Positions 5,839 through 51,093 of a DNA stretch of 58,086 nucleotides are shown in pieces. Origin of the DNA: Bacteroidota bacterium. Lineage in GTDB: Bacteria > Bacteroidota > Bacteroidia > Bacteroidales > FEN-979. The notes below the pieces were generated by a model that searched no databases, was not told the origin of the DNA, and saw nothing but the letters and a program-made list of their open reading frames with translations. The stretch lies in contig JBAXBP010000002.1 of the NCBI GenBank assembly GCA_037141915.1, forward strand, positions 1-58,086, written 5' to 3'. Both the position numbers and the translations under genes were made by a program. Each line of letters begins with the position of its first letter. Within the stretch, counting starts at the first letter, position 1.

Positions 5839-5866
5839 ATGTACCATGTACTATGTACAATGTACA
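5839..5866. repeat. Heptamer tandem array (ATGTACN)x4
   Basis: ATGTACC ATGTACT ATGTACA ATGTACA. It uses the same word family as the arrays at 11811-11838, 31225-31252 and 31313-31340. Confidence 0.85.
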
Positions 5867-5917
5867 AATGTGTTGCATTTTAATTAACGAAGCACCTCAT
5901 TCAAGCTGCATTGTAAT

Positions 5918-9527: not shown

Positions 9528-9563
9528 AAGGCGAAATTTCGCTTTTCGCTATTTCGCTATTTT
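9528..9563. terminator. Convergent-gene spacer: palindrome GCGAAATTTCGC plus octamer array (TCGCTATT x2, TCGCTTT)
   Basis: 9531-9542 is a perfect 12-nt palindrome. 9539-9561 is three tandem units of the AGCGAA word family. The element fills the whole gap between two convergent stop codons. Confidence 0.5.
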
Positions 9564-11810: not shown

Positions 11811-11838
11811 TTGTAAATTGTACATGGTACATTGTACA
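11811..11838. repeat. Heptamer tandem array (TNGTACA)x4
   Basis: TTGTAAA TTGTACA TGGTACA TTGTACA. It lies 10 nt downstream of the yceD-like stop, inside the yceD-rpmF spacer. Confidence 0.85.
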
Positions 11839-11848
11839 TTCTTTTCCT

Positions 11849-13389: not shown

Positions 13390-13390
13390 T

Positions 13391-13542
13391 TGAATTGCGA
13401 ATATTGAATTATGAATGGAATAATCGAATACTCGAATAACGAATTATGATTTAAGAATTTGAATTACAGATCATTCAGAATTCAAAATTCGTTATTCTAT
13501 TATTCTATTATTCAATCTTTTTCATATAAAATTCGGAATTCA
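13391..13542. terminator. About 150-nt imperfect palindrome built from GAAT/CGAAT words; candidate bidirectional terminator
   Basis: 13391-13405 pairs with 13528-13542 (13/15). ggaataatcgaatactcgaataacgaatt pairs with aattcgttattctattattctattattca (about 26/30). The inner stem is TTTGAATT/AATTCAAA. The element fills the entire gap between convergent stops. Confidence 0.6.
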
Positions 13543-23980: not shown

Positions 23981-24008
23981 CGGTTCACGGTTCACGGTTC
24001 ACGGTTCA
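23981..24008. repeat. Perfect heptamer tandem array (CGGTTCA)x4
   Basis: Four identical units. On the minus strand the array reads (GTGAACC)n and starts 3 nt after the sodB TAG. Confidence 0.9.
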
Positions 24009-24011
24009 CGG

Positions 24012-26444: not shown

Positions 26445-27416
26445 ATGAGTAATAGAATACGGATATTCCTGTTGATTATTGCAATGTTTGGTATAACAGC
26501 CGGGCCGGCTATATCCTCTCCAATCCCCAGGACCTTTAGAAATCCTTTCAGGAACAGCCATATTCTTGAGGTTGATTCTGTTCTGATCCATTACAGACTG
26601 TGGACTTCAAACACCAGGCCGGCAAAGGGGAGATTGCTGTTTATCCATGGCTTCACAGGTTCCACCTACTCTTTCAGGAAGAATTATGACAGCCTGGTGA
26701 CTGCGGGCTATGATATCCTGGCTCTTGACCTTCCTGCTTTTGGTTACAGTGACAGGGGAACCTGGATCAATCAATCACAGAGCCACCGGGCAATCCTGAT
26801 CTGGAAACTGATCGATTTCATTAACAAAAGCGACACCACCAAGTGGAACATCATAGGGCATTCCATGGGAGGAGCGGTTGCCGAGGCCGTAGCCCTGATG
26901 AAACCCGGCCGTACGAAAAGCCTTACCCTGGTTGATGCCATATTCTTTAAACAGAACAGCGGGCTAATGAGTGTTGCTTTCTCCCCTGCTAAGTACAAGA
27001 AATTAAAAAAGTTTTATGTGGATTACGTGGGCCAATATCTTCTGACCTACGACCGTATGGCGAAATGGCTTGAAAACGGGTATAAAACAAAGCCTGATTC
27101 GTCGGATGTCACCGGATATATGATGCCTCTGAGGATTCCGGGGACCGCAGAAGCCTTTGTGAGTACGTTCTCAAACTGCAGTGAAGTGGTACCACTGAAT
27201 TCCGAAACCCTGAAAAACATACCTGTATTGGTGATCTGGGGAAGCAAGGATGGATGGCTGCCTCCCCGTTCCGCAACAGTGATACGGACCCTTGTTCCGC
27301 AGGCCGAGATCCATACGATCATGGGAGCCGGGCATATGCCCATGGAAACGCATCCTGTTGAGTTTAACGGGATACTGCTGGAGTTCCTTAACAGAAGTAG
27401 CGAAGTAGCGAAGTAG
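26445..27416 (+). CDS. Alpha/beta hydrolase
   Basis: LLFIHGF, the nucleophile elbow GHSMGG, and a C-terminal GAGHMP histidine motif. An N-terminal signal-like segment is present. Confidence 0.8.
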   Translation: MSNRIRIFLLIIAMFGITAGPAISSPIPRTFRNPFRNSHILEVDSVLIHYRLWTSNTRPAKGRLLFIHGFTGSTYSFRKNYDSLVTAGYDILALDLPAFGYSDRGTWINQSQSHRAILIWKLIDFINKSDTTKWNIIGHSMGGAVAEAVALMKPGRTKSLTLVDAIFFKQNSGLMSVAFSPAKYKKLKKFYVDYVGQYLLTYDRMAKWLENGYKTKPDSSDVTGYMMPLRIPGTAEAFVSTFSNCSEVVPLNSETLKNIPVLVIWGSKDGWLPPRSATVIRTLVPQAEIHTIMGAGHMPMETHPVEFNGILLEFLNRSSEVAK

Positions 27417-27419
27417 CGA
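27396..27419. repeat. Perfect octamer tandem array (AGTAGCGA)x3 spanning the hydrolase stop codon
   Basis: Three identical units. They encode the final residues ..SEVAK and the TAG at 27414-27416. Confidence 0.9.
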
Positions 27420-27422
27420 AAA

Positions 27423-30204: not shown

Positions 30205-31224
30205 ATGATTAATCTCCTGCTGACCGGAGGGTCCGGTTTCCTTGGGAAGTTCCTGGTCGCGGAACTGCTCTCTCCCGACTCCCCTCTTCAACTGAAAACA
30301 TTACGCATCTTTGATACCGCGCCTTATACAGGCAGCGCCGATCCACGGATTGAATATATCCCGGGGAATGTCCTCGACATAGAGGCATTGAAAAAAGCCT
30401 GCATGGGAATTGACGTTGTAATTCACTCTGCAGCAATCGTCGACTGGGGGACCCATCCTCCTGAAGAAGTTTATAACGTTAATACCAATGGAACAGCTAA
30501 TGTTATTAAAGCCTGTACGGCGGATGGCGTGAAGGCGCTTGTTTTCACGAGCTCTCTCGACGCAGTGTTCGGCGGCAAGTCCCTGGCCAACATTGATGAA
30601 AGCCTCCCTTATCCTGCAGAGTATCCCAATATGTATTGCCGCAGCAAAGCCGAAGCTGAGAAACTGGTGGCTGCCGCCAACAGCTTTGCTTTAAAGACAG
30701 TCACCCTCAGACCTGCAGACATATGGGGTGAGGGAGACCCTTTTCATATCGGGTCCCTGATTAAAATGGCGAAAGGGGGCTTTTATGTGAGACTTGGCAA
30801 CGGCAAATCAAAGTCCCAGCATATCTATGCAGGGAATATGGCTGTTGCACATATCCAGGCTGCCAAAGCCCTGCTTGGCGGGAATGAGAGTGTTCCCGGA
30901 CAGGTATATTTCATAACCGATTCGGAAGGTACCAACTTCTTTCATTTCTATGATGCAATTGTAGCTCCAGCCGGGTACAGGATATGGCCAAGGAATTTCT
31001 GGATCCCCCGTCCTGTAGCAATCACTATGGGAGCGCTTTCGGAGTTCTCGGCACTGCTCATCCGCCCAGTAAAAAAAGTAAACGTGACATTCAGCAGGTT
31101 CGCGGTAATCTATACCTGCAATGATTTTACTTTCTCAGCTGAAAAAGCAAAGAGGGATTTCTCATTTAAACCGAAATACAGCAGGGAGGAAGCCTTCAGG
31201 AAGACAGTGGAATACTATAAATAA
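30205..31224 (+). CDS. 3-beta-hydroxysteroid dehydrogenase/NAD-dependent epimerase family protein
   Basis: Rossmann LLTGGSGFLGKFL, catalytic YCRSK, and extended-SDR length. Confidence 0.75.
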   Translation: MINLLLTGGSGFLGKFLVAELLSPDSPLQLKTLRIFDTAPYTGSADPRIEYIPGNVLDIEALKKACMGIDVVIHSAAIVDWGTHPPEEVYNVNTNGTANVIKACTADGVKALVFTSSLDAVFGGKSLANIDESLPYPAEYPNMYCRSKAEAEKLVAAANSFALKTVTLRPADIWGEGDPFHIGSLIKMAKGGFYVRLGNGKSKSQHIYAGNMAVAHIQAAKALLGGNESVPGQVYFITDSEGTNFFHFYDAIVAPAGYRIWPRNFWIPRPVAITMGALSEFSALLIRPVKKVNVTFSRFAVIYTCNDFTFSAEKAKRDFSFKPKYSREEAFRKTVEYYK

Positions 31225-31252
31225 TGTACAATGTACAATTTACCATGTACAA
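31225..31252. repeat. Heptamer tandem array (TGTACAA)x4, third unit degenerate
   Basis: TGTACAA TGTACAA TTTACCA TGTACAA, starting at the nucleotide after the TAA stop at 31222-31224. Confidence 0.85.
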
Positions 31253-31312
31253 ATGAAGTCGTCGACTTTTTGGGTTTAAGTAAGCAATTAAGGCAGGCTA
31301 TTCCCAAATAAT

Positions 31313-31340
31313 TGGTACATGGTACATGGTACATTGAACA
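31313..31340. repeat. Heptamer tandem array (TGGTACA)x3 + TTGAACA
   Basis: It ends 2 nt before the DsrE-like stop (31343) and is roughly complementary to the array at 31225-31252 (about 13/15 over the best segment). Confidence 0.85.
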
Positions 31341-31342
31341 TT

Positions 31343-31678
31343 CTAAAAAGTAATGACCCTGTCGTCGGTGTGGAGATACTGGGTAAGCACATCACCCATA
31401 TATTTTACTTCGATACCCAGCGACCTGATCACGGAGGTCACCCCGTAGGCTTCGGTACAACCCCTGCAGGCTTCGACAAGGATCCCGCATTGCCTCACAA
31501 AATCAAGTTCGGCCTGAACCTCTTTGTCATGAGCCAGCAGTTTAGCGGAAGGTCCCCATATGACAACATTTATCTCATCCCACCAACCCATGCTTTTGGC
31601 ATCCATAAGATAAACGAAGATCATTCTCATGGCCACATCTTTCTCTCCGGTCGACCAGACGACATGCAATTTTTTCAT
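31343..31678 (-). CDS. DsrE/DsrF-like family protein
   Basis: 111 aa, MKKLHVVWSTGEKDVAMRMIF...VVIWGPSAKLL...EACRGC, the typical small DsrE fold pattern. Confidence 0.6.
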   Translation of the reverse strand: MKKLHVVWSTGEKDVAMRMIFVYLMDAKSMGWWDEINVVIWGPSAKLLAHDKEVQAELDFVRQCGILVEACRGCTEAYGVTSVIRSLGIEVKYMGDVLTQYLHTDDRVITF

Positions 31679-31703
31679 AGTACCGGCTTGGGTATCAACA
31701 GGG

Positions 31704-31711
31704 CAAATATA
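31704..31711 (-). promoter_or_regulatory. -7 box TATATTTG for the DsrE-like gene
   Basis: Plus strand reads CAAATATA, 26 nt upstream of ATG 31678. Confidence 0.5.
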
Positions 31712-31764
31712 TTAAAAAACGTGATGACCCTTGCGATCGTGTTGATCGTGATAAAATAATTCTT

Positions 31765-32265
31765 CTATTTCAACTGTGGCAGCTTAAGGCCGGCATGCAG
31801 TTCACGATCGGTATATTCTTTCTGTTTTGCCAGGTCTGCAGCTTCAAACTGCTCCTCCGGGCTCAGTGCTTTCATGGTCATGAATTTTTTCATCCTGGCA
31901 TTCAGCAGTGAATCTTTTTTAACTGTCGCCTGGTATTCAAGGTTTACAACCCAGTAATAATTCTCCCAGCATTTCCTCAGTTTCTCAGATGGGGTTACCA
32001 GTGAAAAGTACTGGGCGAGCAACCTTCTCGGTCCGACTTCATTATTCAGAACGATCAGGTTCGTGACATAATGGTCGTACTGTTTCACTTCATTCAGGCC
32101 TGCCGCCCGGTCCCTGAAACCGTAGTCGATCACCATAGTTACAATGACAAGGGCAACCGACCCGATCAGCCATTTCACCACATCAAAGATCAGTTTCATT
32201 TTCTGAAGCTCGGTCATTTGTTTCTCTGATTTCAGATTTGTCTCTTTTGTTGATTTTTCTTCCAT
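31765..32265 (-). CDS. Hypothetical single-pass membrane protein
   Basis: Charged N-terminus, then TM VKWLIGSVALVIVTMVI. No family was recognised. Confidence 0.5.
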   Translation of the reverse strand: MEEKSTKETNLKSEKQMTELQKMKLIFDVVKWLIGSVALVIVTMVIDYGFRDRAAGLNEVKQYDHYVTNLIVLNNEVGPRRLLAQYFSLVTPSEKLRKCWENYYWVVNLEYQATVKKDSLLNARMKKFMTMKALSPEEQFEAADLAKQKEYTDRELHAGLKLPQLK

Positions 32266-32286
32266 AGCGTTGGATGTTTAGGAGGT

Positions 32287-32470
32287 TGGTTTGTGGATTT
32301 CAATGCATTCCGATGAATCAGGAACTTCTGCGGGGTCCCCTCCCGGCGAAGCTTAGGTAAAAGCCAGGCAGAGAAGTGAGTTTACGAACGGCTTGCCTGG
32401 CTTAGTAAGCGAGCCGATGGTGGGTCGCAGAAGTTCCGTAACAGAGGAATGCACGAAATCCCAAAAACCA
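32287..32470 (-). ncRNA. Candidate rod-like structured RNA (stand-alone sRNA or long 5' leader)
   Basis: Five nested helices, including perfect 12-bp (32321-32332/32426-32437), 10-bp (32361-32370/32394-32403) and 8-bp (32304-32311/32446-32453) stems. A 14-bp closing stem (32287-32301/32455-32470) begins a few nt downstream of an exact -7 box. Confidence 0.45.
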
Positions 32471-32476
32471 GCATCA

Positions 32477-32484
32477 CAAATATA
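32477..32484 (-). promoter_or_regulatory. -7 box TATATTTG immediately upstream of the structured RNA candidate
   Basis: Plus strand reads CAAATATA. The predicted TSS (about 32470-32472) coincides with the first nucleotide of the closing helix. Confidence 0.5.
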
Positions 32485-32510
32485 ATAAGGAATGGAAGAA
32501 AAATCAAGTC

Positions 32511-33812
32511 CTACAACCCGGCCACCAGCTGTTTCAGCCTGGTTTCGGCAACCTTCATGTTGTACTCGAAATTATAGAAGCGGGCGAGGGAGTTTGCATA
32601 ACTCTCCTGGGCCTGGCGGACTTCGAGAGCGGTGGTCTGCCCAAGCCTGAGCCTTTCCATGGAGATCCTGAGGTTTTCTTTTGCAAGGGTCAGGTTGTCC
32701 CTTTCAATGGTTAGCAGTTGTTTCTGATCATCATAATCGGTAAGAGCCGATTTCAATTCAGTGTTGACCTGGAGTTTTACATTCTCAACGGTGTATTTTG
32801 CACTTTGGAGCTGAATTTTTGCAGCCTTCACCTGCCTCAGGGCATTGCCTGCCTGGTATATGGGAATGTTCAGCACACCTCCCAACAGGGGGCCGTATGT
32901 ACGGCTTGTAATCACATTGGAAGCGGAATTATCGTTCTGGTTATAATTGAACGAAGCCACCATGCTCAGCTTCGGAAGCCTGTAGGTTTTATATTCGTTC
33001 AGGCTCAGCAGCGCAATATCTGCCTGTTTCTGGTAATTCAATACCGAAGTGTTGTTCGAATAAAGTTTGTTCATAAGGTCGACAGGGTCGGGTAAATAGT
33101 TCAGGGGAATGGTATCGGCCACTTCGAACTGGGTATCCGGATCACGCGACAGGGACTGGTTAAGCGCACGCTTTGTATTCCTGATAAAATTGATCTGGCT
33201 GATCTCGGCTTCCTTGTTGACGTTAAGGTCGATCTTCGCCTGCAGCAGGTCGTTCTTATGCGCAATCCCTGCCTCATAGCCTTTCTGGAGTATCCTCACC
33301 CTCTCGAGGCTGTATGCCATGACATCGCGGATCGCAAGGAGCTGCTGTTTGGTCTGAACAACCTGGTAGAATGCTACGATGACAGTATATACGGTATTCA
33401 TCACCTGGTCCCTGAACTGTATTTCGCCAAGTTTCTGAACCTGGTTCAGTTTGTTCTTTGTAATGAACATTTTAGTCCCGTCAAACAAAGTCCAGTTCAA
33501 CGCCAGGCCGGCGGTGAATGCATTGGAGGACCCTGCGGCAGCAGTGATCGTGCTTCCGCTGGAAAGGTTCATATATACATTGTTCACCGAGTAATTATCC
33601 GTGCCGAGAATCCCGATGTTAGGCAGCATACCGGCATTTCCGGCGGTATTGTTGACCTTAGCTACATCAGCGTTATTCCTGGCAACGAATACGTCGTAGT
33701 TGTTCTTCAGGGCGATATCAACCGCCTGGTCCACTGTCATTATGTTCTGGCCGAACCCGGGAGTAAAACAAAGGAAGGCTGCAAATAACAGCGCGATTAT
33801 CTTATTCTGCAT
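32511..33812 (-). CDS. TolC family outer-membrane efflux protein
   Basis: Signal peptide and two repeated coiled-coil/beta halves. It is the last gene of the RND operon, with an 11-nt overlap to the pump gene. Confidence 0.88.
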   Translation of the reverse strand: MQNKIIALLFAAFLCFTPGFGQNIMTVDQAVDIALKNNYDVFVARNNADVAKVNNTAGNAGMLPNIGILGTDNYSVNNVYMNLSSGSTITAAAGSSNAFTAGLALNWTLFDGTKMFITKNKLNQVQKLGEIQFRDQVMNTVYTVIVAFYQVVQTKQQLLAIRDVMAYSLERVRILQKGYEAGIAHKNDLLQAKIDLNVNKEAEISQINFIRNTKRALNQSLSRDPDTQFEVADTIPLNYLPDPVDLMNKLYSNNTSVLNYQKQADIALLSLNEYKTYRLPKLSMVASFNYNQNDNSASNVITSRTYGPLLGGVLNIPIYQAGNALRQVKAAKIQLQSAKYTVENVKLQVNTELKSALTDYDDQKQLLTIERDNLTLAKENLRISMERLRLGQTTALEVRQAQESYANSLARFYNFEYNMKVAETRLKQLVAGL

Positions 33813-36800
33813 AGCCTTCGGAATAATCAGGTGTTTGTGTTTTTTTACCAGACATCATTACGTACATGGCAGGGATAACAAAAAGTGTCAGGATGAGTGA
33901 AAACAGCAGTCCTCCTACAACGACGATCCCCAGAGGGGTGCGGCTCTGAGCACCTGCTCCAAGGGCCAGTGCTATCGGCATGGCTCCGAAGATGGTCGCC
34001 AGGGAAGTCATCAGGATTGGGCGCAGTCGGGCAGCTGCGGCCTCGAATGCTGCTTCGCTTTTCGACAATCCCAGTTTCCTCTTCTGGTTGGCAAACTCGA
34101 CAATCAGGATCCCGTTCTTGGTCACAAGCCCCACAAGCATGATCATACCGATCTCGGAGAAAATATTCAATGTGCTCCCGAAAATGAAGAGGGAAAGCAA
34201 TGCCCCTGTAACTGCCAGGGGGACAGTGGTCATGATGATTAATGGGTCGATGAAACTTTCAAACTGTGCCGAAAGGATAAGGTAGATCAGAACAAGGGCC
34301 AGCACGAAAGCAAATGAAGTGTTTGAACTGCTCTCGGCAAAGTCGCGTGAAGGTCCAAGGAGATCGGTCTGAAAAGTATCATCGAGGGTTTCCTTGGCGA
34401 TCTTTCTCATAGCGGTTATACCTTCGCCCAATGTCTTGCCCTGTGCCAGGGATGCTGAAATAGTGGCCGATTTATACCTGTTGTAATGGTAAAGGGTTGG
34501 CGGCTCGCTGCTTTCCTGCATTTTTACCAGGTTATCCAGCTGAATCAGCTGCCCGCTGTTGCTTCTGACATACATCGATGCTATATCTGCCGGCTTATTC
34601 CTGTTCTCACGGTCAAACTGCCCTATCACAAAGTATTGCTTCTCATTCCTCAGGAAATACCCGTATCGTTTCCCGCTAAGTGCAAACTGAAGCGTGTTTG
34701 AAATATCGATGGTATTGATCCCCAGGTCGGTTGTTTTCATCCTGTCAACAATAATGTTGATCTCGGGCTTATTGAATTTAAGGTTTACATCCACATTTCC
34801 GAAAGTCGGGTCCTTGCGGGCCAGGTCCAGGAACTTGGGTACTGCTTCCCTTAACTTGTCGAAATCAAGGTTCTGTAAAACAAACTGTACAGGAAGCTGT
34901 GAGCCTGCGGCAAGGGAAGTCGAGATGGTCTGTTCCTGTATCGGTATGATCCTTGCTTCGGGGAATTTCTTGTAAATTTTCACGAGCCTGTCATAAACCT
35001 GCTGCTGCGTGGTTTTCCGCTCATTGGGTTCTACAAGAAAGATGTTGACGCCCCCGGTATTGGTCGAAGTGTTGCCGAAACCTGAACCTGTTCTTGCAAA
35101 GATCAGCCTTGCTTCGGGGACCTTGACGCGCAAAGTGTCGGAAATCCTGCTGACCAGCCTTTCCATATAATCGAAATCGGTGCCTTCAGGTGCGGTGATG
35201 GTTGTCCTGAGAATGCTGTGATCTTCCAGCGGCGCAAGTTCCGATTTGATTGACTTAAACAGTACAACAACCAGTACAAGGCAAATCCCCAGGACAACGA
35301 GGCTTATCCATTTCTTTTCCATAAACCGGCCCAGCAAGGCACGGTAACCGTTGTCAAGCCATACAAAAAAAGGCTCGGTCTTACGGTAAAACTTCAGGGA
35401 TTTAATATCTGCCGTACCCATTTTCACATTAAGCACGGGTGTAAGTGTAAGGGATACAAAAGCGGATATGAGCACTGAGCCTGCAAGTACAATCCCAAAC
35501 TCCCTGAAAAGTCTTCCCGTAAACCCTGACAGGAAAATAACAGGAATGAAAACTATAGCCAGTGTAACGGATGTGGCGATGACAACGAACAGTATCTCCC
35601 GGGTCCCTGCAAATGCCGCCTTGTACTTGTCCATCCCGTGTTCTATCTTTTTGTAGATGTTCTCGGTAACCACGATCCCATCGTCGACTACAAGCCCCGT
35701 TGCGAGAACGATTGCAAGAAGGGTAAGAACGTTGACTGAGAACCCGAAAATATACATCAGGAAAAAAGATCCGATAAGGGAGACAGGGATATCGATCAGG
35801 GGCCTCAAGGCAATTACCGTATTGCGGAAAAAAAGAAAGACTATAATCACAACCAGCGTTATCGCTATCAGGATAGTTTCAGCCACGTCAGTAACCGACT
35901 GTCTCATGAATTTGCTTTTGTCGTAACCTATATCAAGCTGCATCCCGGCCGGCAGGTTTTTCTTGATCTCTTTGAACCGTTTAAAAAACTCATCGGCAAT
36001 CGCGATCTGGTTTGATCCCGGCAAGGGGATAAGAGCCAGGGAGATGCCTGTGGCTCCATTCAGTTTGACCCCGGTTTCATCAACTTCGGCGCCCAGCACA
36101 GCTTCCCCGATGTCATTAAGGCGTATCACCTGGTCATTCGTCTGCCTGATGATCATATTATTGAAATCATCCTCAGTGGTCAACCTGCCATAGGTCTTCA
36201 CTATAAGTTCGGTGGCACCGCCCCTGACCTTGCCACCCGGAAGGTCCACATTTTCCTTCATCAGGGCCGTATTTACGTCTTCGGCGGTCAGGTTGTAAGC
36301 TGCCATTTTCCTTGGATCAAGCCACAGGCGCATGGCCGGCCGTTTCTGCCCGTAAAGCATGACAGAACTGACGCCGGGTATGGTCTGAAGCTTTTCCTGC
36401 AGCACATTCTCGGCATAATCACTTAGCTCCATCGGATTCATGGTAGTACTCTGCACAGCGACGGTAATGATGGGATCACTGTTGGCATCGGCCTTCGACA
36501 CTACCGGGGGCGCATCCAGGTCCTGGGGCAGGTTCCTGGCACTCTGGCTTACCTTGTCCCTGACGTCATTGGCAGCCTTTTCAAGGTCGGCTCCTACATT
36601 GAATTCCACCGTGATATTACTCGATCCTGTGGAAGAAGAAGAAGAAATGGAACGCACGCCTTCGATGCCGTTGATGGACTTTTCAAGAGGCTCGGTCACC
36701 TGCGATTCAATGATATCGGCATTAGCTCCTGCATAGGAAGTCTGGACGTTGATGGTAGGCGGGTCAATTGCAGGGTAAAGCCTCACACCAAGGAATGAAA

Positions 36801-36885
36801 AGCCCACGAAACCAAACAGCACAATGACGAGACTCATCACAATGCTGGCAACAGGCCGCTTTATCGCGAAATCGGAAATTGTCAT
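33802..36885 (-). CDS. RND efflux transporter permease (AcrB/HAE1 type)
   Basis: 1027 aa, N-terminal FAIKRPVASIVMSL, 12-TM layout with two large periplasmic loops. Confidence 0.92.
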   Translation of the reverse strand: MTISDFAIKRPVASIVMSLVIVLFGFVGFSFLGVRLYPAIDPPTINVQTSYAGANADIIESQVTEPLEKSINGIEGVRSISSSSSTGSSNITVEFNVGADLEKAANDVRDKVSQSARNLPQDLDAPPVVSKADANSDPIITVAVQSTTMNPMELSDYAENVLQEKLQTIPGVSSVMLYGQKRPAMRLWLDPRKMAAYNLTAEDVNTALMKENVDLPGGKVRGGATELIVKTYGRLTTEDDFNNMIIRQTNDQVIRLNDIGEAVLGAEVDETGVKLNGATGISLALIPLPGSNQIAIADEFFKRFKEIKKNLPAGMQLDIGYDKSKFMRQSVTDVAETILIAITLVVIIVFLFFRNTVIALRPLIDIPVSLIGSFFLMYIFGFSVNVLTLLAIVLATGLVVDDGIVVTENIYKKIEHGMDKYKAAFAGTREILFVVIATSVTLAIVFIPVIFLSGFTGRLFREFGIVLAGSVLISAFVSLTLTPVLNVKMGTADIKSLKFYRKTEPFFVWLDNGYRALLGRFMEKKWISLVVLGICLVLVVVLFKSIKSELAPLEDHSILRTTITAPEGTDFDYMERLVSRISDTLRVKVPEARLIFARTGSGFGNTSTNTGGVNIFLVEPNERKTTQQQVYDRLVKIYKKFPEARIIPIQEQTISTSLAAGSQLPVQFVLQNLDFDKLREAVPKFLDLARKDPTFGNVDVNLKFNKPEINIIVDRMKTTDLGINTIDISNTLQFALSGKRYGYFLRNEKQYFVIGQFDRENRNKPADIASMYVRSNSGQLIQLDNLVKMQESSEPPTLYHYNRYKSATISASLAQGKTLGEGITAMRKIAKETLDDTFQTDLLGPSRDFAESSSNTSFAFVLALVLIYLILSAQFESFIDPLIIMTTVPLAVTGALLSLFIFGSTLNIFSEIGMIMLVGLVTKNGILIVEFANQKRKLGLSKSEAAFEAAAARLRPILMTSLATIFGAMPIALALGAGAQSRTPLGIVVVGGLLFSLILTLFVIPAMYVMMSGKKTQTPDYSEGYAE

Positions 36886-36890
36886 ATGGC

Positions 36891-37934
36891 CTATTTTACT
36901 TTGGCGAATTCAAGTTTCATATCCGGCTTGATAAACAGCACTCCGGTTGTAACCACGGTATCCCCGGCATTAAGGCCTGTAAGCACTTCAAGGCTTCCCG
37001 ACTGCCGCACGCCGGTCTGAATGGGTACAAACACTGCTTTACCTTCCCTGGAGACTATTACTGTCTTTTTTCTTTCACTCATAATTATACACTGAGTGGG
37101 GATCATCAGTGCATTGCGGTTTTCGTTAAGTCTCAGCTGGACGTTGGCATAAGCGCCCGGCGTAAGGGCCGGGGCATGCGCTGTGACTACAGCCCTTGCC
37201 TTGAGGTTCCGGGTGTTCTGATCAATTCCTTCCTCAGTGGCCATTACCTCCGCATTATATTTATTGGTATCGCCCTCTACTGAAAATTTGACCTTTGTGC
37301 CCTTATGGATTAACTGGCTGTATTTGCCAGGTACAGCAAAATCAAGTTTCATCTTATCCGATTCCCTGATCGTGGCGAGGGGTGTCGAAAGAGTCACCTG
37401 GGCGCCAAGACTGATGTTTCGCAGGCCAATGACCCCGTCGTATGGCGCAAGGACTTCTGTCTTGCTGATATCGGCTTTCAACAGGTCGATGTCGTTCTTT
37501 GCGGAACTTACGATCAGCGCCTGCTGGTCATATTCTACATGGCTGATCCCATCAGCCTTTAACAGTTCGGCCTGCCTGTCGAGGATCTCTTTCCCAATAG
37601 TATACTGGTTCTGTGCTTTTGCCAGCTGGGCCTGAAGGTCGAGGTCGAAGATCTTTACCAGGAGAGTTCCTTTTTTTACAAATTCCCCTTCGGGCAGGTT
37701 CAGCATCACCACCCTTCCGGCAGCTTCAGGCATCAGCACTGTTTCTTCAAACGGCTTCAGGGTACCAGAGATCCCTATGGTCTCGTCTACTACCGCCGGA
37801 CGCAAAACGTAACCCTCAATAAAAGATATGGACGGCGCCTCTTTCCCGGCATTCTTTTTCTTTGCACCTGTACACGACCCTCCTATCAGCAGGATAGCCG
37901 CAAGGATCAAATTAAAATATACATTATTTTTCAT
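36891..37934 (-). CDS. RND efflux periplasmic adaptor (membrane fusion protein)
   Basis: Lipobox LIGGSC and lipoyl/beta-barrel MFP pattern. It sits directly upstream of the pump. Start set at MKNNVYF. Confidence 0.88.
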   Translation of the reverse strand: MKNNVYFNLILAAILLIGGSCTGAKKKNAGKEAPSISFIEGYVLRPAVVDETIGISGTLKPFEETVLMPEAAGRVVMLNLPEGEFVKKGTLLVKIFDLDLQAQLAKAQNQYTIGKEILDRQAELLKADGISHVEYDQQALIVSSAKNDIDLLKADISKTEVLAPYDGVIGLRNISLGAQVTLSTPLATIRESDKMKLDFAVPGKYSQLIHKGTKVKFSVEGDTNKYNAEVMATEEGIDQNTRNLKARAVVTAHAPALTPGAYANVQLRLNENRNALMIPTQCIIMSERKKTVIVSREGKAVFVPIQTGVRQSGSLEVLTGLNAGDTVVTTGVLFIKPDMKLEFAKVK

Positions 37935-38008
37935 ATGTCTCATGAGGGCCATGCCCCTGGCCTTGATTTTTTGTTACTGCCGTGAAGGGGATTCCCGGCC
38001 CTGGAACA

Positions 38009-51058: not shown

Positions 51059-51093
51059 CATCCTGCATCCTGCATCCCGAATCCTAAAGCCTC
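51059..51093. repeat. Degenerate heptamer tandem array CATCCTG CATCCTG CATCCCG AATCCTA AAGCCTC
   Basis: Five consecutive 7-nt units ending 15 nt upstream of the alpha-2-macroglobulin ATG. Confidence 0.7.

Follow-up and report, generated by a model that had tools for sequence, protein, structure and literature searches.

Intergenic palindromic repeats that are transcribed together with neighbouring genes are encountered in several bacterial groups, and include the Correia elements (CREE) of Neisseria, the ERIC/IRU elements of enterobacteria, RUP/BOX, and other MITEs (PMC2649163, PMC2229807, PMC3184786, PMC10969869). Such repeats can create RNase III substrates or change the stability of the mRNA in which they reside (PMC2649163, PMC2229807, PMC3184786, PMC10969869). 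A different arrangement is found in Clostridium difficile, where flgB (154 bp) and cwpV are governed by leader segments that invert downstream of a fixed promoter (PMC7446863). In plastid non-coding DNA, small 'flip-flop' inversions are associated with hairpins (PMC6444266, PMC7393888).

The stretch of Bacteroidota DNA analysed here (58,086 nucleotides, referred to as the window) contains, in the spacer between a tolC-type gene and a gene for a 166-aa membrane protein, a palindromic element that shares features with each of these systems. Like the CREE, ERIC and MITE repeats, it is an imperfect palindrome in the range of 100-200 bp with terminal inverted repeats, it is located between co-oriented genes and is predicted to be part of an mRNA, and among relatives it is found in either orientation or is missing. 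Those repeats are dispersed in many copies and are usually accompanied by target-site duplications, whereas the present element was found at one locus in everything that was searched, has no such duplication, and appears to have been inherited vertically under constraint. Like the flgB and cwpV segments, it measures some 150-200 bp, has imperfect inverted repeats, and is situated between promoter and coding region, so that its orientation changes the leader RNA and not the promoter; however, those segments are flipped by the recombinase RecV within clonal populations and have non-palindromic interiors, whereas here the orientation is fixed per lineage and the interior is itself a hairpin, and flipping therefore changes loops only. 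The plastid flip-flops share with it the recurrent and phylogenetically incongruent inversion between the arms of a stem-loop in a spacer, with breakpoints at the base of the stem, but they have short loops and are generally regarded as neutral, in contrast to the conserved and structured interior of 153-165 bp on a bacterial chromosome that is described here.

Two classes of structured RNA are also relevant. With 6S RNA (RF00013 and related models) the element has in common a length of approximately 180 nt and a predicted long, interrupted helix, but it has no covariance-model match, is not universally conserved, being missing or deleted in close relatives, varies in orientation, leads into an mRNA instead of a terminator, and is closed by a hairpin loop. 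6S RNA accumulates as a discrete and stable species in which a large central bubble imitates an open promoter; the internal loops predicted for the present element measure at most 8x9 nt. Hairpins in the 5' UTR of the ompA type stabilise bacterial mRNAs, the known examples being short (10-30 nt), and to our knowledge the described 5'-terminal stabilising stem-loops have neither terminal inverted repeats nor an inversion polymorphism. Like these stem-loops, the element begins a few nucleotides from the predicted 5' end and leaves the AUG region open. Stabilisation of this type would be independent of orientation, and a comparable effect at this locus is suggested by analogy.

Structure of the hairpin and geometry of the predicted leader

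The tolC-type gene (32511-33812, minus strand; PF02321, OEP) encodes an outer-membrane factor and is the last gene of an RND efflux operon, with the pump and MFP genes upstream of it. Downstream, on the same strand, lies the gene for the single-pass membrane protein of 166 aa (31765-32265), which has no assigned function. Synteny of these two genes is conserved in orthologous loci, and the MEEK start of the 166-aa protein, which is also conserved in orthologues that lack the element, is ancestral. Neither this protein nor a 111-aa protein had a convincing family in Pfam, NCBIfam or PADLOC; assignments to SecE (166 aa) and DsrE (111 aa) were rejected as their scores were below the cut-offs.

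An earlier note on this DNA, made from the sequence alone, had described five nested helices in the spacer, and direct reading of the sequence recovers every one of them at its proposed position. The outermost stem (32287-32301 with 32455-32470) comprises 14 bp with one mismatch and one bulge, and is followed inward by a perfect helix of 8 bp (32304-32311, TGCATTCC, with 32446-32453, GGAATGCA), a perfect helix of 12 bp (32321-32332, GGAACTTCTGCG, with 32426-32437, CGCAGAAGTTCC), a helix in which GGC and GCTTA (32345-32355) pair with TAAGC and GCC (32406-32415), and a perfect helix of 10 bp (32361-32370, AAGCCAGGCA, with 32394-32403, TGCCTGGCTT). The apical loop of 23 nt (32371-32393) is purine-rich on the plus strand and pyrimidine-rich on the minus strand, and the internal loops are predicted to measure 8x9 nt or less. 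Minimum-free-energy folding of the 245-nt spacer reproduced this rod on both strands, at -87 kcal/mol for the minus strand (z = -7.0) and -102.4 kcal/mol for the plus strand (z = -8.4), with 0 of 200 shuffles as good in either case; with DNA parameters the hairpin reached z = -9.1. The hairpin of approximately 185 nt is thus real, with a fold far beyond chance, and it is the largest inverted repeat of the window. G-U pairs are scarce, amounting to 1 of 58 pairs on the plus strand and 4 of 59 on the minus strand, as would be the case if folding were required of both strands.

The dyad reaches beyond the helices that had been noted before. Its outermost repeat pairs 32492-32507 with 32250-32265 (16/16 bp), of which the tolC-side arm (TTGATTTTTCTTCCAT on the minus strand) is located just past the tolC stop, and the gene-side arm (ATGGAAGAAAAATCAA, minus strand) consists of the start codon and five further codons of the 166-aa gene. 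Since the tolC-side arm is upstream of the predicted transcription start, it would be present only in read-through RNA from tolC, and in the predicted fold of that RNA the two arms form a closing helix of 16 bp over the AUG. Only the window lineage has this helix without mismatches; L008 retains 14/16 bp and L006 13/16 bp.

The promoter that the same note had placed directly upstream of the hairpin was borne out by comparison. A -33 element ([C/T]TTG; CTTG at 32505-32508, minus strand) and a -7 box of the Bacteroidota TAnnTTTG type (TATATTTG, 32477-32484, minus strand), separated by 20 nt, are found at the same place in orthologous spacers, including loci of which the tolC gene is only ~70% identical. 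The same arrangement is present in L018, L020 and L023, and the -7 box, which is outside the flipped segment, is invariant in all orthologous spacers that keep the promoter, with or without the hairpin. A sigma-70-type scan also matches TTGATT-17-TATATT at the -33 element. Transcription is predicted to start near 32472, leaving 0-3 unpaired nucleotides at the 5' end and an open AUG region in either orientation of the core. The rod ends at 32287, 21 nt before the ATG (32265), which agrees with the spacing given earlier. Bacteroidota initiate translation without a leading Shine-Dalgarno sequence. A sequence scan of the core detected neither a TAnnTTTG promoter box nor a terminator-like site inside it.

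Inversion, loss and conservation among relatives

A quasi-palindromic core of 165 bp (32296-32460) is inverted between lineages. It is bounded by terminal inverted repeats, a 16-mer on the left (32296-32311, GATTTCAATGCATTCC) and a 15-mer on the right (32446-32460, GGAATGCACGAAATC), and because this asymmetry flips with the core, the inversion breakpoints must be within or outside the outer GATTTC; all alleles share these breakpoints, which are confined to at most 6 bp per end. Orientation A occurs in the window and in L001-L005, L028, L008-L010 and L017, and orientation B, its reverse complement, in L006, L007 and L019, as well as in a remnant in L022 and L024-L027. This distribution conflicts with the gene tree, as the window (A) has L025 (B) as its sister and L008 (A) has L006 (B). 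Nearly all helix pairs are of the Watson-Crick type, and an inverted core consequently reproduces the helices and alters the loops only; the fold, the 5' end and the accessibility of the AUG are the same in both orientations, and loop composition alone differs. An assembly artefact was rejected as the origin of the inversion, as the arms share no perfect identity longer than 12 bp, far shorter than assembly k-mers, and either orientation was recovered repeatedly from independent samples and with independent assemblers. An inversion large enough to include the outer stems was rejected as well, as reverse-complementing the A flanks does not yield the B flanks.

The outer stem belongs to the flanks and not to the flipped core. 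Its 5' arm (32461-32470, minus strand; TGGTTTTTGG in the RNA) pairs with its 3' arm (32287-32295, minus strand), and the arms differ in sequence between haplotype A (GGTTTGGG/CCCAAACC) and haplotype B (GGTATTGC/GCAATTAC), with pairing kept in both. The flanks as a whole are mosaic and hypervariable.

The window clade and the P0020 lineage have the element, and L011, L018, L020 and L023 lack it. L023 has a precise empty site, at which a spacer of 78 nt joins both flanks (GGTAATCC^CAATACC) and which already contains the small palindrome from which the outer stem is derived; this is the basal lineage, so the empty site may be the ancestral state. Approximately 85% of the core is deleted in L022 and L024-L027, the deletion allele being joined at microhomology; in the closest relative of the window, the deletion of about 85% has removed the promoter as well. 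In L024-L027 the remaining spacer is 61 nt long and without promoter. Judged by these absences and near-complete deletions in relatives, the element is dispensable.

Where it is retained, the core is better conserved than any other 165-bp stretch of the 6-kb locus, with an identity of 97.6-98.2% against a locus mean of 81-86% and a sharp fall in identity at the element ends. Its divergence of 0.018-0.024 compares with a tolC dS of 0.26-0.69 and dN of 0.02-0.05. None of the 8 variable sites of the core falls within any of the five helices (hypergeometric P = 0.002), and unpaired positions differ pairwise by only ~6-9%, compared with 22-45% for synonymous differences (pS). The conservation of these unpaired positions is left unexplained by a function that resides in the helices alone. 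Moreover, the loops are of skewed composition (A21 G15 U10 C3 on the plus strand; C19 U16 A10 G2 on the minus strand), which looks like one 'sense' RNA strand and fits poorly with indifference to orientation.

A more diverged copy was recognised through P0200, a single ORF of 48 aa that was obtained from the translated core frame and represents the same 245-nt spacer in a distant lineage. Codon-constrained inference from this ORF gives at least 12 forced differences in 146 nt, with 42 of the 44 testable pairs still able to form and the apical loop retained. Because it occupies the same spacer, the P0200 copy is a diverged orthologue and not a dispersed copy, and it speaks for an old element that has been passed on vertically and changes about as fast as nonsynonymous sites do.

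A proposed leader hairpin and its alternatives

Three options had been raised for this structure, i.e., a 6S-type or other stable small RNA, a long cis-regulatory leader, and a MITE-like palindrome acting as terminator of the tolC operon, of which the cis-regulatory leader fits best. Our preferred reading, to which we assign a probability of roughly 0.4, is a locus-specific leader hairpin, located at the 5' end, that is constrained in its pairing and retains its function when inverted. It is supported by the strength of the fold, the conserved promoter, substitutions that leave the pairing intact, outer stems that differ between the haplotypes and yet pair, and the diverged P0200 copy, as well as by the lack of further copies in the sequences searched and the constant orientation within lineages; in L020, moreover, a different hairpin occupies this position of the leader. 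The locus would then contain a single-copy cassette, which is composed of the 165-bp core and outer stems derived from the flanks and occupies the middle of a small palindrome that was already there, 1-3 nt past the position where transcription from the own promoter of the 166-aa gene is predicted to begin. Transcription from this promoter, which we infer from the sequence, would yield a rod of ~185 nt at the 5' end of the mRNA, with the AUG region single-stranded. The hairpin may act in cis as a 5'-terminal or intercistronic stem-loop that protects or processes the message and separates it from RND-tolC read-through; in read-through RNA of the window lineage the additional 16-bp helix would close over the AUG. 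Flips would be rare events that occur at the foot of the hairpin, by recombination or by template switching, after which both types of allele may have spread or sorted among lineages. Both orientations are proposed to persist because inversion keeps the helices and changes loops only.

If this reading is true, the locus provides a natural case of a structured leader that works after inversion, with the same helices both ways, and of a long palindrome that is kept, flipped, trimmed or lost at one chromosomal site among close relatives. It would also offer a testable case of how Bacteroidota separate a downstream gene from operon read-through. For screens it would mean that a very strong fold z-score combined with a promoter is not enough to identify an RNA gene, and that very high conservation of a hairpin is compatible with orientation flips; loci of this kind would be misclassified by RNA screens that rely on covariation and by inverton finders alike.

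The strongest alternative, although an unlikely one, is that the core is a MITE-like, non-autonomous mobile element of 165 bp with 16-bp terminal inverted repeats that enters the middle of a small palindromic target in this leader either way, in which case the similarity between lineages would reflect recent spread and not function. The terminal inverted repeats, the clean empty site of L023 and the occurrence of both orientations favour this part of the earlier proposal, and the sharp drop in identity at the element ends, the star-like core tree with private substitutions only, and the patchy distribution (window clade and P0020 lineage versus L023, L018, L011 and L020) point the same way. 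The many scattered near-identical copies by which a MITE was to be recognised were, however, not found. No second copy of the core was detected in the 58-kb window, the part of the source genome that was searched (BLAST, word size 7), nor in 204 kb of window and related loci (nhmmer). An exact-pattern scan with a 20-nt core pattern, TGCATTCCN{8,9}GGAACTTCTGCG, returned only the orthologous L017 and chance matches from species-representative genomes and the JGI metagenome collection, and no match from viral contigs. BLAST did not find the core in phage and plasmid collections. Four single-arm pattern matches (L013-L016) were attributed to chance, and one translated frame of the core found nothing among 5.8 billion proteins. 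Target-site duplications are lacking, as the flanks are mutually inverted and not direct repeats in both haplotypes, and no ORF of the 58-kb window has a recombinase, integrase or transposase domain in Pfam. In addition, mobility would require at least four independent insertions into one site, and the divergence of the core scales roughly with dN out to P0200, which fits vertical descent.

Somewhat less probable again is a programmed inversion switch (inverton), in which a trans-encoded recombinase flips the core at the 16-bp inverted repeats, and leaders with purine-rich or pyrimidine-rich loops differ in premature (e.g., Rho-dependent) termination or in stability. Such a switch would account for a segment bounded by inverted repeats that is seen in both orientations, in conflict with the gene tree and with identical breakpoints in all alleles, as well as for a strong conservation that extends to the loops and for the strand asymmetry of the unpaired bases; the flgB switch of C. 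difficile, which operates via Rho, provides a precedent downstream of a promoter (PMC7446863). Orientation was nevertheless constant within each lineage in 7/7, 4/4 and 2/2 independent assemblies, which came from different samples and assemblers. This speaks against frequent switching while leaving room for a minority state. Logan contigs pass straight through the element without interruption, and orientation matched the flank haplotype in all five cases (5/5), which suggests two old alleles rather than fast switching. Furthermore, the 58 kb contain no recombinase, the core contains no promoter or terminator, and its inversion alters almost nothing but loops.

A further possibility, which we regard as doubtful, is that the core is a functional RNA or DNA module maintained as two alleles, A and B, which are long-lived and shared across species, and that inversion switches between a leader with purine-rich loops and one with pyrimidine-rich loops, thereby setting different expression levels of the membrane protein. 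Such a leader switch by inversion, here in environmental Bacteroidota, would be of a type that has not been described before; its signal would reside in the loops alone, and its helices would be unchanged.

It is improbable that the structure is primarily the 3' end hairpin of the RND-tolC operon, a REP/ERIC-like stabiliser or terminator that is only incidentally part of the next leader. Its position 40 nt past the tolC stop would suit this role, which is by nature independent of orientation; no other terminator is visible, and the two units are naturally coupled by the short spacers of L024-L027 (61 nt, without promoter) and L023 (78 nt). On the other hand, the promoter is located between tolC and the hairpin, and most orthologues have no comparable hairpin after tolC. 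The suggestion of an intrinsic terminator did not hold, as the hairpin lacks a U-tract, the sequence following it is A/C-rich, and zero terminator-like sites were found in 32100-32700.

Equally hard to favour is a palindrome without function that arose and was remodelled by replication template switching or inverted duplication at a site prone to repeats, and of which the stems are kept complementary by arm-to-arm correction. The genome is rich in arrays of 7-8-nt words, and unrelated repeats or palindromes occupy the same site elsewhere: L018 has heptamer arrays, L011 has direct repeats of 35 nt, and the leader of L020 has, at the same position, a different hairpin of the word-array type with a perfect stem of 17 bp (z = -5.4). 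The microhomology at the joint of the deletion allele and the mosaic, hypervariable flanks are compatible with such an origin too. It does not explain, however, why mismatches, bulges and loops are conserved 5-10 times below the synonymous rate in both orientations, nor does it explain the purine/pyrimidine asymmetry of the loops.

An independent stable small RNA gene, 6S-like or otherwise trans-acting, that is transcribed from the TATATTTG promoter is very improbable, since its rod-like shape of ~185 nt, the promoter directly upstream, a core conservation on par with structural RNAs and a plus-strand loop composition like that of known structured RNAs are set against the lack of any Rfam match and of a terminator after the hairpin, a transcribed strand that, relative to the sole promoter, is opposite in sister lineages, absence or deletion in close relatives, and a single known locus in the genome and metagenome scans. 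A cis-acting leader hairpin is more likely than a 6S-like gene because the element is single-copy in the sequences searched, varies in orientation among close relatives and is lacking from other relatives. The Rfam search concerned included 6S and covered 32000-32800 on both strands, where no family was found inside the hairpin (cmscan, E <= 10); scans of the whole window, L006, L020 and L023 gave no hit at gathering thresholds. Readings of the element as attC-, dif- or retron-like were rejected, as it has no R-box consensus and is accompanied by neither an integrase nor a reverse transcriptase. Finally, the only match nearby, a weak one to the RAGATH-1 hammerhead (18.9 bits versus a gathering threshold of 56.3), considered to be due to chance, is located outside the hairpin at 32495-32594, where it spans the 3' end of tolC and the upstream part of the spacer.

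Locus and promoter

The element, a quasi-palindromic core of 165 bp (32296-32460), lies in the 245-bp spacer (32266-32510) between the genes for a tolC-type outer-membrane factor (32511-33812) and a 166-aa single-pass membrane protein (31765-32265), both on the - strand, as are those for the RND pump (33802-36885) and the RND membrane-fusion protein (36891-37952), the latter containing a 26-nt tandem repeat (37686-37739; 2 copies, 85% matches). The order from tolC to the 166-aa gene is kept across relatives, and a 111-aa ORF downstream (31343-31678, - strand), whose sole match is a sub-threshold DsrE/DsrF-like Pfam (21 bits versus a cut-off of 22.7), is syntenic in all of them; a 146-aa ORF overlapping it on the opposite strand (31319-31759, + strand) is probably spurious. 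The source organism belongs to the Bacteroidota, is uncultured, and is recorded solely in metagenomes. The content of the 58-kb window is core metabolism (IleRS, fatty-acid synthesis, mevalonate pathway, SOD, alpha-2-macroglobulin), with no tRNA and no Rfam family at gathering threshold in the window and no integrase, transposase, or recombinase domain among its ORFs; the element resides in housekeeping chromosome.

The promoter proposed in the earlier note is real, consisting of TATATTTG at 32484-32477 with CTTG 20 nt upstream (32508-32505). The consensus of the Bacteroidota -33/-7 promoter is TTTG / TAnnTTTG, and the 20-nt spacing fits this type. The unit [C/T]TTG-20 nt-TATATTTG is also found immediately 3' of the tolC stop in three related loci without the hairpin (L018, L020, and L023; tolC DNA 70-83% identical to the window); the promoter is older than the hairpin. 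Transcription is predicted to start at about 32472, leaving 0-3 unpaired nt ahead of the outer stem.

Structure and conservation of the hairpin

All five helices described earlier could be read from the sequence (32287-32301/32455-32470, 32304-32311/32446-32453, 32321-32332/32426-32437, 32345-32355/32406-32415, and 32361-32370/32394-32403), and the same rod was obtained by folding the spacer as the - strand (-87 kcal/mol, z = -7.0) or the + strand (-102.4 kcal/mol, z = -8.4). With DNA parameters z was -9.1, and in none of these three tests did a shuffle fold as well. The hairpin is the largest inverted repeat of the window, and its dyad reaches beyond the limits first proposed: the start of the 166-aa gene (32250-32265; ATG and first five codons) recurs as its exact reverse complement in the 16 nt at 32492-32507, 3' of the tolC stop. 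The match is complete (16/16) in the window lineage and falls to 14/16 in L008 and 13/16 in L006. The mirror copy of the gene start (ATGGAAGAAAAATCAA, + strand) overlaps the -33 region of the promoter. The + strand has a single G-U pair in 58 and the - strand has 4 in 59, a scarcity expected if pairing is needed on both strands.

With copies oriented alike, no other 165-bp stretch of the 6-kb locus is as well conserved as the core. Core identity between the window lineage and L006 is 97.6% (locus mean 81%, next-best 165-bp stretch 93.9%), and 98.2% between the window lineage and L008 (86% and 92.1%, respectively). Pairwise core divergence is 0.018-0.024, with tolC dS ranging from 0.26 (L006-L008) to 0.69 (window lineage-L006) and dN from 0.02 to 0.05. 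The four cores align without indels, and their 8 variable sites, each private to one lineage, all fall outside the five helices (P = 0.002). A translated-core search additionally retrieved a single 48-aa ORF, P0200, from the distant P0020/P0123 lineage; it was called antisense to tolC, lies in the same 245-nt spacer, and represents a diverged core copy in the orientation of the window. Over 146 nt, a codon-constrained comparison of P0200 with the core forces at least 12 differences and one indel; 42 of the 44 testable pairs can still form, and 2 pairs of the 12-bp helix are necessarily broken. Since the core, P0200 included, diverges at about the nonsynonymous rate of tolC, old vertical inheritance under constraint fits better than recent invasion. 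Two features are awkward: conservation at unpaired core positions also exceeds that at synonymous sites (4-8 times), and unpaired bases are strongly strand-biased (+ strand, A21 G15 U10 C3; - strand, C19 U16 A10 G2).

Orientation, deletion, and empty-site alleles

Among the sequences compared, the relatives reveal what appears to be a cassette rather than an RNA gene. Contigs encoding a 166-aa protein identical to that of the window also match its spacer at 100%, with the core in orientation A, which is shared by the P0003 lineage (L008-L010, L017; 86% DNA identity to the window). In orientation B, the 165 bp occur as the exact reverse complement; this form is found in the P0002 lineage (L006 and L007, with 85% identity to the window and 91.5% to L008) and in the P0001 lineage (L019). 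The inverted unit is 32296-32460, with ends GATTTCAATGCATTCC and GGAATGCACGAAATC, and a 1-base length difference between the repeat copies moves with the core in all four lineages, which puts the breakpoints inside the outer 6 bp or just beyond them. Outside this unit, the promoter and outer stems are not inverted. The outer stems occur as two haplotypes, A (GGTTTGGG/CCCAAACC) and B (GGTATTGC...GCAATTAC), that differ at mirrored positions with pairing kept in both, and core orientation agrees with flank haplotype in 5/5 lineages. No perfect identity between the arms exceeds 12 bp, and each state was independently reproduced, which rules out an assembly artefact as the source of the inversion.

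Orientation conflicts with the tolC tree, ((window:A, L025:B), (L006:B, L008:A)), which requires at least two core flips, or one flip followed by allele transfer between lineages. The latter fits the mosaic pattern nearby: across the right flank and the first 30 codons of the 166-aa gene, L008 and L019 are 98% identical, compared with 85-87% further downstream, suggesting that short recombination tracts adjoin the palindrome. Sequence in the N-terminal 27 codons (window 32185-32265) is hypervariable, with a mosaic pattern among lineages; identity between L006 and L008 is about 77% over this stretch and about 99% downstream.

The closest relatives of the window (L022, L024-L027; tolC DNA 94.5%) carry a deletion allele with a 61-nt spacer, which lacks the promoter and about 140 nt of the core and retains 25 nt in orientation B. 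Its recurrence in 14 contigs from several assemblers indicates that it is real. The tolC stop region (..GTAGGACTT) is fused to ..CCGTAACAGAGG of the core (L022 1476-1512; L025 2934-2970, equal to window 32511-32530 joined to 32436-32460), and at this junction there is a loose resemblance between the 3' end of tolC (GCTGGTGGCCGGGTTGTAGGACTT) and the core arm (GATGGTGGGTCGCAGAAGTT). With its promoter removed by the deletion, the 166-aa gene presumably shares a transcript with the efflux operon in this lineage. The basal lineage L023 (tolC about 83% identical to all others) has a clean empty site in a 78-nt spacer, ...GCAGGTAATCC^CAATACCGACC..., which is itself a small palindrome.

Proposed role and rival explanations

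On the best reading, the element is a hairpin cassette, specific to this locus and constrained by pairing, at the extreme 5' end of the leader of the 166-aa gene. In either orientation the predicted transcript would begin with the rod and leave the AUG region open; in read-through RNA from the efflux operon, an extra 16-bp helix, perfect in the window lineage only, would bury the AUG. Inversion of the near-pure Watson-Crick helices would rebuild them and alter only the loops, which may explain why both orientations are tolerated. The element is probably transcribed and may act as a 5'-terminal or intercistronic stabilizing, processing, or insulating element.

A site-specific MITE-like element is a main rival, favored by the clean empty site, the terminal repeats, and the star-like core tree; the core's slow divergence speaks for old inheritance rather than recent invasion. 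No second core copy was found in the window (the part of the source organism covered), 204 kb of related loci, 185,579 species-representative genomes, IMG/VR, phage/plasmid collections, or the JGI metagenome collection, which is incomplete and returned just one of several known JGI loci. The element does not pass the tests that define a dispersed MITE. Another main rival is a programmed inversion switch in the leader, of the type known from C. difficile flgB and cwpV (PMC7446863). Of the features of an inverton, the element shows only the structural ones, and within each lineage independent samples and assemblers agree on the orientation (7/7, 4/4, and 2/2), giving no sign of fast phase variation. 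The element, which lies behind tolC in a region with no terminator-like site, could also be a 3' hairpin of the efflux operon; it does not pass the defining tests of an intrinsic terminator. A neutral, repeat-prone palindrome, also a main rival, has to be set against the conservation of the core. The stand-alone, 6S-type sRNA offered in the earlier note is least likely, given that no Rfam family and no tRNA/tmRNA matched, the element does not pass the defining tests of 6S RNA, no terminator-like site was found, and the element behaves as a cassette in relatives.

The closest known counterparts are intergenic palindromic repeats that are transcribed, e.g., Correia/CREE and ERIC (PMC2649163, PMC2229807, PMC3184786, PMC10969869), leader-embedded inversion switches (PMC7446863), and the hairpin-associated small inversions of plastid spacers. 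As a leader hairpin that is conserved, single-copy, and present in two orientations, the element unites very high conservation with flips of orientation, an unusual combination that read-level and transcript data could test.

In orthologues more distant from the window, the place of the 165-bp core right behind the promoter is taken by heptamer arrays in L018 (2932-2965; GCCATGA x3 and GTGATGA x2), a 35-nt direct repeat in L011 (about 2885-2960), and an unrelated hairpin in L020 (2921-3000; 17-bp perfect stem, z = -5.4) built of AGCGAAx words (AGCGAAG/AGCGACA/AGCGAAT). This site seems to attract repeats and palindromes. Tandem arrays of 7-8-nt words, e.g., ATGTACA, ATTTCGCT, CGGTTCA, and GAAGTAGC, are abundant in the intergenic spacers of the window (5839-5867, 9536-9562, 11811-11840, 13390-13516, 23981-24011, 27394-27420, 31213-31352, and 51059-51085) and look like a genome-wide repeat class of the source lineage. 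Several form palindromes (13415-13458/13473-13516 and 31213-31254/31311-31352, the latter between convergent genes).
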